Shown: positions 5,736 to 41,670 of the stretch, in pieces
Numbering within the stretch: position 1 is the stretch's first letter
Layout of the letters: each line of letters starts with the position of its first letter
Assembly: GCA_011605775.1 (NCBI GenBank)
Contig: JAAOZN010000092.1
Span: 547 to 64,546 of the forward strand
Source of the DNA: Nitrososphaerota archaeon
GTDB taxonomy: Archaea; Thermoproteota; Nitrososphaeria; Nitrososphaerales; JAAOZN01
Direction of reading: 5' to 3'
DNA length: 64,000 bases
The notes under the pieces: generated by a model
Seen by the model: the letters and a program-made list of their open reading frames with translations, nothing else
Databases searched by the model: none
Told to the model about the DNA's origin: nothing
Made by a program: the position numbers and the translations under genes

Positions 5736-6194
5736 ATGGAGCTCAGAGTATCTCTAGAAAACCTCTGGGACTACAGGTACGCGATGGTGGAGGGAGCGAA
5801 GGAGCTGAAGAAAGCTTGCGACGCCGTACTCAGAAGATACAGCGAAGCCGCAGCCTTGACAGCGAGCAGATTAGCGCCGAAGCGCACTGGAAGGCTTGCA
5901 GCGAGCATAAGATATAGGAGGGAGGGTGAGATGAGCTACTCAGTAGGCTCTGAACTCATATATGCACCATTCGTCGAATGCGGGACGAAGCCGCATGTAA
6001 TAAAGCCTGTCTCGGCTAAGGTTCTTGCATTCACGGTAGGTGCAAGCAGAGTCTTTGCTAAGGTTGTCAACCACCCTGGCTCGAAGGAGAGACCCTTCCT
6101 CAGACAGGCGCTTAAAGAGATCGAACCTAGGCTTAAGGCTGAATTAGCCGCTGAGGCTGAGGGGCTCTTTAGGTTGAAGTTCCGCTTTAGGTGA
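5736..6194 (+). CDS. HK97 gp10-family tail/neck component
   Basis: APKRTGRLAASIRY...YAPFVECGT matches the HK97 gp10 family core (..TG.L..si......Ya..vE.Gt). Confidence 0.5.
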   Translation: MELRVSLENLWDYRYAMVEGAKELKKACDAVLRRYSEAAALTASRLAPKRTGRLAASIRYRREGEMSYSVGSELIYAPFVECGTKPHVIKPVSAKVLAFTVGASRVFAKVVNHPGSKERPFLRQALKEIEPRLKAELAAEAEGLFRLKFRFR

Positions 6195-6198
6195 TCGG

Positions 6199-8019
6199 TT
6201 GCCGACCTTCGATCTTGTCGCTAGGATCAAGGCGGTTGATCAGGCGAGCAGCGTCTTCAGGTCTGTGGCAGATAATGCGAGCAGACTTTCACGGGGCTTC
6301 AGTCAGCTTGGGCAGATAGCGAATATCGCAGGTGGGTTTATAGTCGCATCTCTTGGGTTGAACGCAGCTTCAGCGGTCAGAAGCTTCCTCAGCGAGGCTG
6401 TAAACACGGTGATCGAAATGAAGACCCTCAGCAGCGTCTTAAAGAAGACTATCGAAAACATGGGCTTAAGCTGGAGCGAGTGGGGACCTAAGATAACGAA
6501 GCAGATAGATGAAATGAGGGCATCAACGCTCTACACCAAACAAGAACTGCTCGAGGCTTTGACGATCCTAGTAAGATACGGTTTGGAGCCTGAAGAAGCC
6601 TTAAGAGCGCTTGCTGTTGCTATAGATACTGCTGCTGGCTCAGGTAGATCGTTGAAGCAGGTTGCTGAAGATCTTGGGCAAGCCTTTAGCGGGCAGACTT
6701 CTGATCTCAAGAATAAGTATGGTGTAGAGGTTGAAAAGACTTCTGAGAGGCTTCTTAGCTTAAAGGAGAGGGTCGAAAGCCTGGGTGAGAGGTATGGTAG
6801 GCTGGTGCTGGTAAGTGATGAAGTGGTGCAATCTTTAGCTAGTATGGGGATCACGATAGATGAAGCCTCAAAGCAGACGTTAACATGGGGAGATGTGGTC
6901 GAGCAGATAAAGAGTAGGCTGGATACGCTCGATGCCGCCGCTATAGAAGAGTTCTTAGAAAGGTATGGTGCAGCGAGCAGCAGAGCTGAGAAGTCAGCCC
7001 TAGATTTCGCAGAAATACTCTCGAGGTTGGATGAGAAGTTTAGGGGGAGCGCCTACGCAGCCTATGAGGCTGGAGGAGCCTACGCAAGGTTCGGTAACTT
7101 AATGGAGGAAGTTAAAGAGGTCGTTGGGGCTGGGCTTATACCTATACTCGAAGCACTAGGCAATACGCTTGTTATGTGGGCTAAACCCGAGGGGAAAGAG
7201 AAGATCTTCGCACTCATGAAAAGGGACTTCTTCTCCTTTGTCGCAAGCATAGACGAGGCTGCAGCAAGCATCCAGATGATCAACGAGAGGCTTAAGACCT
7301 CGTTAATCAGCGACTACAAGGCAGTCTTTGATACAATATCTTCAGCAGCCAACAACGTGCTTAATCTGATACTTAACACCTTTACACCATTTTTATCAGC
7401 TTTGGTTGAAGCTACATCAAACACGTTCAGAATAGTAACAGAGGTTGTGTTAAACAGCCTAGACAGGCTCAGGCAGAGCGCAGATCAAACATTCAGAGCG
7501 ATCGTGGAGAATCTCCTTTCACTCTCAACCTCTTGGACCCAGATAGTGGAATGGATAGTAGAGAGGAGTGAGGGGATCTTGAACCCCATCGAACAGATTC
7601 AACTGCGCCTAACTACGTTGAGAAGTGTGGCTGGTGAGGTTTGGTCCTCAATTTCGGCATCGATGTGGAGGTTTTACACAGAAGCTTTGATCCCTATCCA
7701 AAACGCCGTTTGGGGCTTCGTCAACTCAGTAGTAGCGGCATTCAACTGGCTCTGGGATGTTTTAGCGAAGAGGAGCATCTGGCCCGATATATGGGCTGAG
7801 ATGCTGAGCCAGGCTAAGAGCGGTCTAATGGCTATCGAGAGGACAGTTGAGCCAGCCCTTCTTGATCTAGCGCATATGTTTGCTGCGTTGAGTACTGTGA
7901 ACATAGGGTCTATTAACATAACAACCCACGCCATATCATCAAGCATCGATATTAGGAGATTGGCTGAGCAGGTTGGGTATGAGGTAGCGAGGCAGCTGAG
8001 CCTTAGGAATAGAATCTGA
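6199..8019 (+). CDS. tail tape measure protein
   Basis: 606 aa, almost entirely helical. Central segment ELLEALTILVRYGLEPEEALRALAVAIDTAAGSGRSL resembles the tape-measure core. Hydrophobic C-terminal third. Canonical position. Confidence 0.7.
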   Translation: MPTFDLVARIKAVDQASSVFRSVADNASRLSRGFSQLGQIANIAGGFIVASLGLNAASAVRSFLSEAVNTVIEMKTLSSVLKKTIENMGLSWSEWGPKITKQIDEMRASTLYTKQELLEALTILVRYGLEPEEALRALAVAIDTAAGSGRSLKQVAEDLGQAFSGQTSDLKNKYGVEVEKTSERLLSLKERVESLGERYGRLVLVSDEVVQSLASMGITIDEASKQTLTWGDVVEQIKSRLDTLDAAAIEEFLERYGAASSRAEKSALDFAEILSRLDEKFRGSAYAAYEAGGAYARFGNLMEEVKEVVGAGLIPILEALGNTLVMWAKPEGKEKIFALMKRDFFSFVASIDEAAASIQMINERLKTSLISDYKAVFDTISSAANNVLNLILNTFTPFLSALVEATSNTFRIVTEVVLNSLDRLRQSADQTFRAIVENLLSLSTSWTQIVEWIVERSEGILNPIEQIQLRLTTLRSVAGEVWSSISASMWRFYTEALIPIQNAVWGFVNSVVAAFNWLWDVLAKRSIWPDIWAEMLSQAKSGLMAIERTVEPALLDLAHMFAALSTVNIGSINITTHAISSSIDIRRLAEQVGYEVARQLSLRNRI

Positions 8020-8033
8020 GGTCTGTTGCTTAG

Positions 8034-9476
8034 ATGCTTTACGCAAGGGTTGAGATAACCGATTTGAATAACATTACGCGTGTAGTGGGTAGTGAGAACC
8101 GAGGCTTTGAGCTGAGGCTACACCACAATAGCGCAAGCACCTTTAGGTTGGTGGTCAACGACTCCGCTGGATTCTACAGGGAAGCATACGGAATAGGCTC
8201 TATTGTGAATGTTTTCTGCGACTCTGCAAACCCGCCTAGGCAGCACGTGTATCAAGGGCAGGTTGAGGATGTGAGTGTAAGGTTTGAAGGAGGGCGTAGA
8301 CTACTTGTCGTAGACGCTGTGGAATACGCATATACGGTGATTCTGAATAGGTATGTGGTTGAAACGTATCAAGATAAGAGCTTCGACTACATCGTGCAAG
8401 ATCTGTTCGCCAAGTATGCTCCTGAAGTTGACACACGCAACGTACAGCCCCCGAACACGAGTGGGAGGAGCTTCGTCTTCAACTATGTTACGCTGAAGGA
8501 GTGTTTGGATCAGCTCGCTGAGTTGGCTAACTGCCAATATTACTTCACACCAGACCTTGAACTCTACTTTTACCCTAAAGGCTCTAGGCGCTCCGGGTTT
8601 ACGTTGACCTCAGAGAACATTCTTCAGCCGATAGAGGTGTTAGAGAGCATACGTGAGGTGCGTAATGTAGTCTATGTGATAGGTGGGTATGAGTTAAGGG
8701 TTGATCAGAGCCAGACCAACATAGGTGGCTACGTAACCCTAAACGAATACCACTACGCAGCAAGATTCACACCAACTCAGAACAATCTGCGCATGTTAGC
8801 ACTCTACTTGGAGAAGCAGGGGGAACCAAACGAAAACATAAGTGGTCAGATCGTAGAAGAGTTGGATGGGGCTCCGAAGGGTAGGAGGGTAGACTACTTC
8901 ACCATTACGCCTCGTGATGTAGGTGAGGAGGGGTCACCGGGCTGGGTCTCTCTTCCGCTGCAAGCGGATGTTGAACCTGGTAAGGCTTACTGGATAACTC
9001 TATCAAAGAGCGGAACTCAGACAGAAACTTATCGCTGGTATCACGATGCCTCAGACCAAGGAATACACGCATACTCATCTAATGGCGAGGATTGGAGTGT
9101 TGATGAGGGTAGCTGGGCGCCTACATTCAAGCAGTTCTGCGGAGTTCCGGTCTTGGCACAGGCAGTCAATGAAAGCAGTGTTAAGAAGTATGGAAGGAGG
9201 GAGTTGGTGTATGTCAACACCAACCTCATCGACAGATCTACCGTCAAAGCGTTAGCGCTGAACCTTCTTGCTGCATCGGCTGAAAAGAGGCTTAATGTTG
9301 AAAGCCTTGTGGTAAGGGGTCTACCCGGGCTGCCGAAGGTAGGTGAGAGCGTTAGGGTTACGCTGCCAGAGATAGGGTTGGACAAAGAGTTCAAGATCAA
9401 AAGTGTAGTTGCTGAGTTCAGCGCTGGTGTGCCCTCGTTAGAGGATTTTAAGCTGGAGTTGGAGGACCTTGCCTGA
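8034..9476 (+). CDS. distal tail / baseplate protein (Dit-like, tentative)
   Basis: 480 aa and beta-rich, immediately downstream of the tape measure. Called from position and the N-terminal pattern. Confidence 0.4.
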   Translation: MLYARVEITDLNNITRVVGSENRGFELRLHHNSASTFRLVVNDSAGFYREAYGIGSIVNVFCDSANPPRQHVYQGQVEDVSVRFEGGRRLLVVDAVEYAYTVILNRYVVETYQDKSFDYIVQDLFAKYAPEVDTRNVQPPNTSGRSFVFNYVTLKECLDQLAELANCQYYFTPDLELYFYPKGSRRSGFTLTSENILQPIEVLESIREVRNVVYVIGGYELRVDQSQTNIGGYVTLNEYHYAARFTPTQNNLRMLALYLEKQGEPNENISGQIVEELDGAPKGRRVDYFTITPRDVGEEGSPGWVSLPLQADVEPGKAYWITLSKSGTQTETYRWYHDASDQGIHAYSSNGEDWSVDEGSWAPTFKQFCGVPVLAQAVNESSVKKYGRRELVYVNTNLIDRSTVKALALNLLAASAEKRLNVESLVVRGLPGLPKVGESVRVTLPEIGLDKEFKIKSVVAEFSAGVPSLEDFKLELEDLA

Positions 9477-20814: not shown

Positions 20815-20936
20815 TCACAATAATCAAAAAAGCTGTTCGCTGGCGAGTTTGTAAGTTTTACTTGAAAACTTTGATCCAATTGTCTTCCGCATATTCACCA
20901 TTTTTAGAAGGAGATGAAGATGCGGGCCCGCCGGGA

Positions 20937-20960
20937 CACCCGGAACCCTCTCTTGGGTTT
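20937..20960 (-). other. tRNA intron 2 (24 nt, T-loop position 59/60), BHB motif with one extra unpaired C
   Basis: The outer helix is the T stem CCGGG/CCCGG. Central helix UCCG/CGGG. Bulges AA|A and UG|U. Inner hairpin AACCC-AAGAGA-GGGUU. Confidence 0.7.
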
Positions 20961-20989
20961 TTCGGACCCGGGACCCCCGGGTTAAAAGC

Positions 20990-21011
20990 TTCACCGAGGC
21001 TCTTTGCCTCA
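20990..21011 (-). other. tRNA intron 1 (22 nt, position 30/31), canonical hBHBh' motif
   Basis: Central helix CACC/GGUG. Bulges GG|U and AA|G. Inner hairpin GAGGC-AAAGA-GCCUC. Outer helix GAG/CUU. Confidence 0.8.
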
Positions 21012-21088
21012 CCGGTGCTCTACCTGGCTGAGCTACGGGCCCGCTGTATGGAGGGTTTAAGTAGGGACTATTATCTCTTTATGTTGGT

Positions 21089-25260: not shown

Positions 25261-25268
25261 TATAAATA
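25261..25268 (+). promoter_or_regulatory. TATA box (TATAAATA) for aEF-2
   Basis: Lies 47-54 nt upstream of the ATG at 25315, with the purine-rich SD GAAGGTGGTGGG at 25301-25312. Confidence 0.45.
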
Positions 25269-25314
25269 CTGGCGGTAATAGGCTGATGATTGGGTTAGAA
25301 GAAGGTGGTGGGCG

Positions 25315-27537
25315 ATGCCGAGGTTCAAGACCACAGCAGAAATCATGAAGATCATAGGCAATAAGAGCCAGATTCGAAAGGCTTAGCCGATTTTGGCTAG
25401 CCCGAATGATTTTGGCGTTATTGCCCACGTAGATCACGGCAAAACTACTATGAGCGATAGCCTACTCGCTGCCTGTGGGCTTCTAAGCCCTTCTGTTGCA
25501 GGTCAAGCCCTAGCCCTCGACTACATGGATCTTGAGCAGCAGAGGCAGATGACGATCAAAGCGGCTAACGTGACCCTCTACTACGAATACAATAACATAC
25601 CCTATGTGCTTAACATGATAGACACCCCTGGGCACATTGACTTCACAGGCAGGGTTACGAGGAGCCTGAGGGCTATCGATGGAGCGGTGGTTGTTGTAGA
25701 TGCCGTTGAGGGTGTTATGACGCAGACCGAAACAGTCACTAGACAGGCGCTTGAGGAGAGGGTTAGGCCGGTGCTCTACATAAATAAGATAGACCGCTTG
25801 GTCAAGGAGCTGAGGCTTACACCTGAGCGGATGCAGCAGTGGCTTGCCGGGATAGTGAACGACTTTAACCACCTTATATCCATCTACGCTGAGCCAGAGT
25901 ATAAGGAGAAGTGGAAGGTGAGCATTCAAGACAATAGCGTAGCCTTCGGCGCAGCCAAGGACAAGTGGGGCTTCAATCTAGAGATAGCGCAGAAGAAGGG
26001 TGTGAGGTTCAGCGACATCTACGAAGCATACACAAAAGGAGCAGTCGCTCAGCTCGCAGAAAATTACCCGCTGCACGAAGCCATCTTAAGTATGGTGATA
26101 AAGCATCACCCACCACCTGATGTAGCGCAGAAGTATCGTATCCCAAGAATATGGAGAGGCGACCTAGACTCAGAAGTTGGTAAAGCGCTCCTAAACTGCG
26201 ATGAAAACGGACCAACAGTAATGATGGTTACAAATGTGGTAGTAGATCCTCAAGCGGGTGTGGTAGCAACTGGAAGGCTCTTCTCCGGCACCGTTAGAGA
26301 TGGCGACAAAGTGTATCTTATAGGCGCTAAGAGGGAGGAGAGGATCCAATCCGTCAACATGTTCATGGGACCTTATAGGGAAATCGTAGGCGAGCTAGGT
26401 GCAGGGAACATACCAGCGCTGCTTGGACTTGAGCACGCCAGGGCTGGTGAAACAGTATCATCAATAAAAGACCTCGTCCCATTTGAATCCATAAAGTATG
26501 TTTCTGAGCCCGTGGTGACGGTAGCTGTGGAACCTAAGCATCCAAGGGATCTGCCCAAACTCGTTGAAGCGCTCCATAGGCTCAGCATAGAAGACCCTAA
26601 CCTCGTGGTGAAGATAAACGAGGAAACAGGCGAGATGCTTATGTCTGGTATGGGTGTGCTGCATCTTGAAATAGCTACCACACTGATTCAGCAGCAGGGG
26701 CTAGAGATCGTCACATCGAAGCCCCTCATCAACTACAGGGAGACGATACGGAGGGCTGCAGGTCCTGTTATGGCTAAGTCGCCCAATAAGCACAACAAGA
26801 TCTACATTAGAGTCGCTCCGCTTACAGAAGAGGAGATCGAACTCATAAGGACTGGGAGGATAAATGAGAACCTAGATAGGAAGGAGATCGCAAAGATCCT
26901 TAGAGAAAAAGGCTGGGACGCTGAAGAGGCTAGAGGTGTGGTAGCGGTAGATGAGCGTGGTAACCTCCTGCTTGACTTGACTAAGGGTGTGCAGTTCCTC
27001 CAAGAGTCTCTGGACTCGATAAGAGCAGGGTTTGTGGATGTGATGATGACAGGCGCACTCGCCCACGAATATACGAGAGGGGTCAAGGTTATTCTGCACC
27101 ACTTTGTACCGCACGAAGACCCTGCGCACAGAACCTACGCCCAGCTTATGCCAGCTACCAGAAGGGCGATCTTAGGTGCGATCCTCTCAGCAGACCCAGT
27201 TCTACTCGAGCCTATGCTTGGTATAGAGGTTAAGTGCCCTGTCGACATGATCGGCGCGGTTGCGAGCGTCATATCATCTAAGCGTGGTAAGACGCTGAAT
27301 ATTATCCAGAAGGAGACGATGGCTATAGTAGAAGGTGAAATACCAGCCGCCGAAACCTTCGACCTATCAGAAGTTATGCGAGGAGCAACCGCAGGAAAAG
27401 CCATTTGGAACACCCACTTCAAATGCTGGTCACCAGTCCCAAGCTCCATGATGATGAATGTGATAAAAGAGATCAGAAAGAGGAAGGGGCTGCCAGAAGA
27501 GCCGCCTAGAGCAGAGGAGTTCATAGACAAAGAGTAG
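25315..27537 (+). CDS. fusA: translation elongation factor 2 (aEF-2), coding sequence interrupted by a 30-nt BHB element containing an in-frame TAG
   Basis: G1 AHVDHGKTT, DTPGHIDF, NKIDR and the full EF-2 domain series through the diphthamide-loop region. The conserved N-terminus MPRFKTTAEIMKIIGNKSQIR is encoded upstream of the TAG at 25384 in the same frame. Confidence 0.85.
25379..25408 (+). other. candidate bulge-helix-bulge intron within the aEF-2 mRNA
   Basis: Outer helix GCCAGA/UUU[U]GGC. Central 4-bp helix UUCG(25373-76)/CGAA(25403-06). Bulges AAA(25377-79) and UGA(25407-09). Inner helix GGCU[U]AGCC/GGCUAGCC with loop GAUUUU. Excision leaves 30 nt fewer, in frame, without the TAG. Confidence 0.6.
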
Positions 27538-41091: not shown

Positions 41092-41670
41092 TTATTCAAG
41101 CCAAACCGTTTTGTTCTGGAAGGGTGTTCGGAAACCCTTCTGAGGTTGTGCATCCGGATACCCTAGGTAGATGAAGCCTAGCAGATATTCTCGATCACTT
41201 AAGCCGAAGAAATCCTTAACCTTCTTCCGATAAGCAGCTTTACCTGTCCTCAGGATCGCACCCAACCCTGGTGCGTGAGCCGCCAACAGCATATTCTGAA
41301 TGGCTGCGGAGGTTGCGACGATCTCCTCTAACTCGATCACATTCGGATCTTGCTTTGGCGAAGCCGCAACCGCTATTATCACAGGTGCTCTTAGTGGCCT
41401 CTGCTTCTCCGCATCGATCTTAACCCTACTTTCCTGAGAGTTTGGATCAGCCAGCTCTTCCGCTAGAGCCTGTGCCATGACCTCGCCTAGCTTCTCTCTA
41501 GCTCGACCTGTTAGGACGAAGAATCTCCAAGGCTCTGTGAGGTGGTGGGTCGGAGCCCACGTTCCAGCATCAAGAATCTTTTCAATAAGCTCCCTTGGTG
41601 GGGGATCGGGTTTAAACCGGCTTATACTTCTTCTCGTCTTTATGGCTTCAAACACATCCAACTGAGTCAC
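41092..41670 (-). CDS. nitroreductase-family oxidoreductase
   Basis: IKTRRSISRFK near the N-terminus, ..APTHHLTEPWRF.., ~190 aa. Confidence 0.75.
   Translation of the reverse strand: MTQLDVFEAIKTRRSISRFKPDPPPRELIEKILDAGTWAPTHHLTEPWRFFVLTGRAREKLGEVMAQALAEELADPNSQESRVKIDAEKQRPLRAPVIIAVAASPKQDPNVIELEEIVATSAAIQNMLLAAHAPGLGAILRTGKAAYRKKVKDFFGLSDREYLLGFIYLGYPDAQPQKGFRTPFQNKTVWLE

Follow-up and report, generated by a model that had tools for sequence, protein, structure and literature searches.

A probable bulge-helix-bulge intron in the elongation factor 2 gene of Nitrososphaeria and Bathyarchaeia

The DNA considered here is a 64-kb stretch from an uncultured thermophilic Nitrososphaeria archaeon (contig JAAOZN010000092.1; hereafter the window), in which the gene for archaeal translation elongation factor 2 (aEF-2) is interrupted close to its 5' end by 30 nucleotides (nt) that bring a stop codon into frame. 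Taken together, our analyses indicate, with a probability that we put at roughly 0.9, that aEF-2 is a two-exon gene whose intron (25379-25408, plus strand) is bounded by a motif of the bulge-helix-bulge (BHB) type and would have to be excised by the splicing endonuclease for EF-2 to be expressed. The original prediction, made from the letters of the window, had proposed that such an intron interrupts aEF-2 and must be removed, and this is now supported by inserts of 30-63 nt that occupy the homologous position in 25 further assemblies, by covariation within the predicted fold, and by restoration of the reading frame.

The long EF-2 open reading frame (ORF) of the window encodes 714 amino acids and extends from a TTG at 25393 to 27537, with no Shine-Dalgarno-like sequence in front of that TTG. 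Further upstream, a TATA-box-like element (tataaata, 25261-25268, plus strand), which can be read from the sequence as a putative promoter, lies 47 nt ahead of an ATG at 25315-25317, and a Shine-Dalgarno-like stretch, GAAGGTGGTGGG (25301-25312, plus strand), ends 2 nt before the same ATG. Judging from upstream translations, this Shine-Dalgarno-like stretch is apparently kept in the close relative L001 and largely in L002. The ATG starts a 23-codon ORF, MPRFKTTAEIMKIIGNKSQIRKA, that is terminated by a TAG at 25384-25386. In the two-exon model, exon 1 (25315-25378, plus strand) comprises 21 codons (MPRFKTTAEIMKIIGNKSQIR) and the first base of the Asn22 codon, while exon 2 (25409-27537, plus strand) begins with the second base of Asn22 and continues through codon 730 to the stop, so that the intron is in phase 1 of codon 22, shortly ahead of the P-loop.

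Removing 25379-25408 in silico yields ...SQIR-N-FGVIAHVDHGKTT within an ORF of 730 amino acids, the RNA reading ...CAGATTCGAA joined to ATTTTGG... across the predicted junction. The product scores 863.9 bits against the TIGR00490 aEF-2 profile (cutoff 738.45), with residues 3-718 on positions 2-719/720. The exon 1 peptide occupies positions 2-22 of the profile, and because the spliced product spans it from position 2 to 719, exon 1 evidently supplies the normal N-terminus of the family; alignments of solved archaeal EF-2 structures to the spliced product likewise begin at residue 3-9. The spliced and unspliced products would differ in their peptides, since the predicted tryptic peptide NFGVIAHVDHGK has an N-terminal Asn whose codon is present only once the RNA is spliced, and translation of the unspliced insert would include ...SPNDFGVIAHVDHGK. 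The promoter-like element, Shine-Dalgarno-like stretch, ATG, TAG, TTG, helices and bulges of the original prediction are all present where it placed them, and the cut that it proposed does delete the TAG, keep the frame, create an AAT codon and give a 730-amino-acid ORF matching the aEF-2 profile.

The predicted fold (all positions on the plus strand) is built from three helices. The outer helix, h, pairs GCCAGA of exon 1 (25367-25372) with UUU[U]GGC of exon 2 (25410-25416, the last base of Asn22 and the Phe23 and Gly24 codons), giving 3 bp, a bulged U, and another 3 bp. The central helix, H, has 4 bp and pairs UUCG (25373-25376), formed by the last two bases of Ile20 and the first two of Arg21, with the intronic strand CGAA (25403-25406). 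On either side of it are 3-nt bulges, AAA (25377-25379; AAA or AAT in all sequences) and UGA (25407-25409). The inner hairpin, h' (25380-25402), has a stem of 8 bp (25380-25388 with 25395-25402, U25384 being bulged) and a loop at 25389-25394, and it holds the in-frame TAG. Cleavage would be expected between 25378 and 25379 and between 25408 and 25409, so that the intron would consist of the last base of the 5' bulge, the inner hairpin, the intronic strand of the central helix, and the first two bases of the 3' bulge. The cut positions that are needed to restore EF-2 thus coincide with those of the canonical cleavage rule for EndA, the archaeal tRNA splicing endonuclease. The 66-nt region has a minimum free energy (MFE) of -23.8 kcal/mol (z = -4.07), and none of 200 shuffled sequences was as stable; the outer and inner helices are recovered both by the MFE fold and by the RNAalifold consensus.

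The strongest evidence comes from relatives. When one genome per species was scanned, 80 EF-2 loci were found, all of them in Nitrososphaeria (class labels, here and below, are those given by the depositors), and 21 of these carry an insert at the same site, of 30, 31, 32, 37, 42, 45, 49 or 63 nt. Most of these lengths are not divisible by three, which puts exon 2 out of frame with exon 1. Proteins very similar to that of the window come from two uncultured metagenome-assembled genomes (MAGs), L001 (96% identical) and L002 (94%), whereas L003, with a protein 81% identical, is intron-less and shows the precise absence of the insert (...ATTAGAAACTTTGGC). Inserts at the same EF-2 codon, of 36 or 39 nt, also occur in four MAGs labeled Bathyarchaeia (L201:2954-3000, L202:2957-3000, and 1457-1500 in both L203 and L204), which were reached via truncated database proteins beginning MGIIAHVDHGK. 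Two of the Bathyarchaeia contigs keep the gene order CbiQ-like, SIS-domain, (amidohydrolase), EF-2, which is that of the window except for the amidohydrolase. These neighboring genes are orthologous to those of the window at only 42-53% identity, and therefore the Bathyarchaeia MAGs represent distant lineages rather than contamination by close relatives.

All 26 interrupted genes contain a strict BHB, in which each strand of a 4-bp helix is followed on its 3' side by a 3-nt bulge, and in all 26 an in silico cut after the second bulge nucleotide restores ...[IV][RK]N[FLI]G..AHVD; wherever the contig contains the whole gene, the resulting ORF is about 730 amino acids long. In the Bathyarchaeia genes, the central helix is TCCG/CGGA or TCCG/CGGG and the cut gives R-N-I-G-I-I-A-H, and for L201 the 4-bp helix and the 5' bulge, along with an inner stem of 13 bp, are part of the MFE fold itself. 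L012 has CAGG/CCTG as its central helix and an intron that lies one base further 3', in phase 2 rather than phase 1, and the cut still gives R-N-F-G. The original prediction had asked for a comparison with related genomes, and across the 25 further genomes the homologous inserts do keep the BHB while their sequence and length change.

This conservation of structure can be quantified. Among 22 sequences, 91.1% of helix cells are paired, compared with 27-53% when the partners are slid, and the covariation score is 0.268 as against 0.142 in shuffled alignments (0 of 500 reach 0.268). By helix, 97.7% of outer and 83% of inner cells are paired. Seven base pairs have been altered on both sides, six of them among the nine pairs of the inner helix, and the loop sequence of the intron is unconserved. 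For the central helix, structure-anchored columns were tabulated, because MAFFT sets L012 by coding homology, one base off the structural register. On these columns 72 of 72 cells are paired across the 26 genes, with compensatory variants at three of the four positions (TTCG/CGAA, TCCG/CGGA, TCCG/CGGG, and CAGG/CCTG).

The coding sequence bears the mark of the same structure. The exon 1 peptide is conserved in the 80 relatives. Pairwise codon differences in exon 1 number 1459 synonymous and 910 non-synonymous, and it is thus still constrained as coding sequence. In intron-bearing genes, the codons that contribute to the central helix and bulge are nearly invariant (Ile ATT in 21 of 22, Arg CGA in 21 of 22, Asn AAT in 22 of 22), whereas genes that lack the intron vary, with three different codons for Ile, seven at Arg21 (six for Arg, and the Lys codon AAG in two genomes) and mostly AAC for Asn. 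The freezing of these exon codons is thus confined to genes with the intron. The frame of exon 1 meets a stop (TAG, TAA or TGA) inside the insert in all 22 genomes, usually at codon 24, and every intron has its stop codon 2-6 codons in.

An interrupted tRNA gene in the window provides a control for the cutting rule. The tRNA-Lys(UUU) locus at 20923-21042 (minus strand) contains two BHBs, and removal of 20990-21011 (22 nt) and 20937-20960 (24 nt) by the rule applied to EF-2 produces a 75-nt tRNA-Lys(UUU) that is accepted by ARAGORN, while the unspliced locus is detected neither by ARAGORN, with or without its intron mode, nor by Rfam. The claim that one rule yields an intact tRNA-Lys as well as EF-2 is thus borne out, in that ARAGORN accepts the spliced form only. 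We read the two tRNA introns as lying at non-canonical positions, 20990-21011 in the anticodon stem and 20937-20960 in the T-loop. The T-loop of the mature tRNA would read UCCGAAU, with an unusual C rather than U at what we count as position 55. A doubly interrupted tRNA-Lys implies BHB splicing of broad specificity in the organism, which agrees with the report that a broad-specificity (alpha-beta)2 EndA is conserved in Thaumarchaeota (PMC5829648).

Several observations weigh against an EF-2 intron of this kind. Both the MFE fold and the RNAalifold consensus favor a central internal loop over the 4-bp helix with two bulges, and for the 66-nt fragment the BHB conformer, at -17.8 kcal/mol, lies about 6 kcal/mol above the MFE; BHBs commonly sit above the MFE in folding predictions. 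In the window, the outer helix has little strength, consisting of A-U, G-U and A-U, then a bulged U, and three G-C pairs. Matches to a loose BHB motif number 187 in the window compared with 139-158 in shuffled sequences, and 107 candidates in the window also merge two ORFs upon removal, mostly by chance. Since the motif is so frequent by chance, its occurrence in one sequence is not significant alone and the case rests on the relatives; the significance of the EF-2 element lies in the restored, conserved N-terminus together with the comparative data. Traces of spliced products were also sought. A scan of metagenome contigs with CARATTCGAAATYTKGG, a 17-mer across the spliced junction that is short enough for chance matches, returned no spliced cDNA-like contig among the matches listed, in which the only two EF-2 genes (L143 and L192) are intron-less genomic copies. 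Likewise, protein searches queried with the spliced N-terminus of the window lineage and with that of Nitrosocaldus yielded truncated gene calls but no full-length N-terminus from intron-bearing lineages. Finally, neither EndA nor RtcB genes are found in the 64-kb window, which is a portion of the genome, and a motif scan of it for RtcB was negative.

Other explanations of the insert fare worse. It might be a disabling lesion or an untranslated spacer, with an EF-2 lacking its first 21 residues made from TTG 25393 or another internal start and exon 1 left as a decaying remnant or a separate small ORF. The in-frame TTG of the window and the public annotation of truncated proteins from MSDSLL or MAHVDHGK in relatives (records P0083, P0116, and P0122) would fit this. 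However, 16 of the 22 genomes lack any ATG, GTG or TTG in the stretch from the insert to the P-loop, and the first start is an ATG 41 nt downstream, past GHVDHGKTT; an internally initiated protein would therefore be without the G1 motif. The TTG of the window, which has no Shine-Dalgarno-like sequence, is an accident of this lineage. Moreover, the exon 1 peptide has been kept, with abundant synonymous change, across lineages whose EF-2 is only about 75-80% identical, and the exon codons are frozen so as to maintain an RNA helix, all of which makes an internal start very improbable. Alternatively, the ribosome might hop over the insert in uncut RNA, as in gene 60 of phage T4, for which a short untranslated gap, a stable hairpin and an early stop beyond the take-off region could be cited. 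The sole matched codons, CGA at 25375-25377 and CGA at 25403-25405, however, would land the ribosome out of frame (R-M-I-L...), the gaps range from 30 to 63 nt, and take-off and landing do not require a conserved 4-bp helix and two 3-nt bulges with compensatory changes; we regard hopping as more improbable still.

The remaining two explanations can be given next to no weight. An assembly or sequencing artefact, or population heterogeneity, could affect the insert or the TAG in one MAG of an uncultured organism, and single-base errors are common in MAGs, but the insert recurs at the same site, with covarying structure, in 25 independently assembled genomes from different studies, by which an artefact is effectively refuted. 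That the insert is translated, through stop readthrough (e.g., TAG as pyrrolysine) or as a mini-intein, would suit the 30 nt of the window, a multiple of three with a single TAG; in the relatives, however, most lengths cannot be divided by three, any of TAG, TAA and TGA may be the stop, and the loop is unconserved. An intein was rejected since every insert holds a stop and most lengths break the frame. A true intein does seem to occur in EF-2 of L029 (1087-3010) and is entirely different, namely an in-frame insertion of about 1.8 kb with intein hallmarks (C...HN) within the P-loop (AHVDHGK/C...VHN/TT) of a gene without the BHB intron. We also considered group I and group II introns and other catalogued RNAs, for which there is no Rfam match; 30 nt is far below the size of a ribozyme core. 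No part of the window matches Rfam at gathering thresholds, ARAGORN likewise reports nothing in it, both tools being blind to introns of the BHB kind, and BHB scans of the window, which are dominated by chance matches, identified no second convincing mRNA intron.

If the element is an endonuclease-spliced intron, EF-2 expression could be pictured as follows. Transcription would begin from the promoter near 25261, and the intron, together with ~12 nt at the end of exon 1 and ~8 nt at the start of exon 2, would fold as hBHBh', a structure supported in silico and by covariation. The host EndA would cut after the second nucleotide of each 3-nt bulge, and an RtcB-type ligase would join the exons, the intron probably being circularised. 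The junction would create the AAT codon of Asn22 and with it an mRNA for the 730-amino-acid EF-2. From unspliced RNA only the 23-amino-acid peptide would be expected, and in most relatives no P-loop-containing EF-2 could arise from such RNA. It is conceivable, though speculative and in our estimation rather unlikely, that the intron acts as a checkpoint tying EF-2 synthesis, and thus translation capacity, to the activity of EndA and RtcB or to a temperature- or ribosome-dependent folding of the BHB. The intron would then be no passive relic but part of an archaeal equivalent of the regulated, unconventional mRNA splicing of HAC1/XBP1. Such a checkpoint would explain why Nitrososphaeria and Bathyarchaeia have kept the intron at a single site, the stop 2-6 codons into it, and the frozen exon codons.

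On a neighbor-joining tree built from spliced EF-2 proteins, many deep Nitrososphaeria lineages carry the intron: it is found in the Nitrosocaldus group (eight genomes, including every Nitrosocaldus sampled) and its sister group (L015, L016, L021, and L026), as well as in the window clade (the window, L001, and L002), L004, L012, L022/L023/L025, and L027/L031. None of the sampled Nitrososphaera, Nitrosopumilaceae, and Nitrosotalea has it, nor do several interspersed lineages, namely L003, which is sister to the window clade, L005-L007/L010/L013/L020, L028/L030, and L032/L054. This distribution, together with the Bathyarchaeia cases, fits an old intron that was repeatedly and precisely lost; repeated insertion at one site is a possible alternative. 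Two of the EF-2 loci show peculiarities of another kind. In L054, a diverged second copy of the last 37 EF-2 codons (57% identity) lies at 5914-6024, about 730 nt downstream of the intact gene, and this duplicated end resembles the target duplication of thaumarchaeal casposons, which have been reported to integrate at ef-2 (PMC6563490). In L055 (347-470), EF-2 residues 1-40 and 67-730 are encoded on overlapping segments in different frames, which is probably due to a frameshift or assembly error rather than a BHB intron.

Gene callers do not model BHB introns, and consequently EF-2 is annotated as truncated or partial in intron-bearing lineages. For example, public EF-2 records begin MSDSLL or MAHVDHGK (P0083, P0116, and P0122) or MGIIAH (P0101-P0110), and P0083, P0116, P0122, P0134, and P0042 are N-terminally truncated or frame-read-through versions named 'GTP-binding protein, partial'. 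One of them, P0042, begins with MWAINRRFEWLSSNKLSPNNFGVIAH, a wrong-frame translation through the intron.

Two other features of the window deserve mention. At 5736-9476 (plus strand), three consecutive ORFs match PHROGs tail families, namely tail completion/Neck1 (E = 6e-16), tail length tape measure (E = 1e-8), and baseplate hub (E = 3e-8), which suggests a provirus or a virus-derived tail module; the interrupted tRNA-Lys at ~20.9 kb could be the attachment site of such an element. The segment 41115-41170 (plus strand) forms a very strong hairpin whose geometry resembles a BHB, with an 11-bp inner and a 7-bp outer helix, and which interrupts no ORF. It lies 58 nt downstream of a 545-amino-acid ORF, by our reading a probable thermosome/chaperonin subunit, and antisense to the 3' end of a 192-amino-acid ORF (41092-41670), and it may be a 3'-end or terminator structure.

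If confirmed, aEF-2 would be the second protein-coding sequence known to carry an archaeal endonuclease-spliced intron; no earlier coding intron of this kind would be known from beyond Crenarchaeota or from an essential GTPase at the core of translation. That two classes share the intron at one conserved site would mean that archaeal mRNA introns can persist for very long, and the repeated precise losses would offer a clean system for studying the gain and loss of such introns. There are also practical consequences, in that EF-2 is a standard phylogenetic and completeness marker whose annotation is truncated in these lineages. Enrichment cultures of Ca. Nitrosocaldus bring a possible coupling of translation capacity to tRNA-splicing activity within experimental reach.

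The splicing mechanism itself is already established. In papers of 2020 and 2023, the only archaeal mRNAs named as being spliced at BHBs are cbf5 (in the coding sequence, in some Crenarchaeota) and HVO_1309 (in the 5' untranslated region, in Haloferax; PMC7714728; PMC10485636), and the 2023 review expects further cases to emerge (PMC10485636). The original prediction had named cbf5 as the documented precedent, which agrees with the literature, the Haloferax intron being a later case. An intron in EF-2 is, as far as we have searched, previously unreported: full-text searches on EF-2, BHB introns, Nitrosocaldus, Thaumarchaeota, and Bathyarchaeota, subscription-only publications being outside their scope, and particular papers on Caldiarchaeum, thaumarchaeal mobile elements, and EF-2 evolution yielded no report of it.

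The closest parallel is the cbf5 intron (Watanabe et al., 2002; Yoshinari et al., 2006; Yokobori et al., 2009, PMC2738675), which is likewise a short, BHB-bounded intron inside an archaeal coding sequence, found in lineages with (alpha-beta)2 EndA, patchily distributed with gains or losses, and located in a gene for translation or RNA maturation. The two introns are elements of one kind but not of the same family, since cbf5 encodes a pseudouridine synthase and its intron is found in Desulfurococcales and Sulfolobales, whereas the intron described here is in aEF-2 of Nitrososphaeria and Bathyarchaeia. Moreover, the cbf5 motifs are described as relaxed (PMC10485636) whereas the EF-2 motif is a strict hBHBh', and splicing has been shown experimentally for cbf5 while for EF-2 we infer it. 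The BHB introns of archaeal pre-tRNAs (Marck and Grosjean, 2003) have identical geometry and the same cleavage rule, and those in the tRNA-Lys of the window, at 22 and 24 nt, are near in size to the 30 nt of the EF-2 intron; by contrast, the EF-2 substrate would be an mRNA without a tRNA body, and the exonic strands of its helices are also constrained by coding. HVO_1309 of Haloferax volcanii (Schwarz et al., 2020, PMC7714728) is similar in being an EndA-processed mRNA BHB outside Crenarchaeota, but its intron is in the 5' untranslated region rather than the coding sequence and its enzyme is of the alpha2 type. A more distant analogy can be drawn with HAC1/XBP1 splicing, in which a short mRNA intron is also excised by a non-spliceosomal enzyme, a tRNA ligase (RtcB in metazoa) seals the exons, and splicing alters the reading frame (PMC13149111; PMC2965688); there, however, the enzyme is IRE1 instead of EndA/TSEN, the recognized structures are stem-loops instead of a BHB, and splicing serves as a regulated stress switch.

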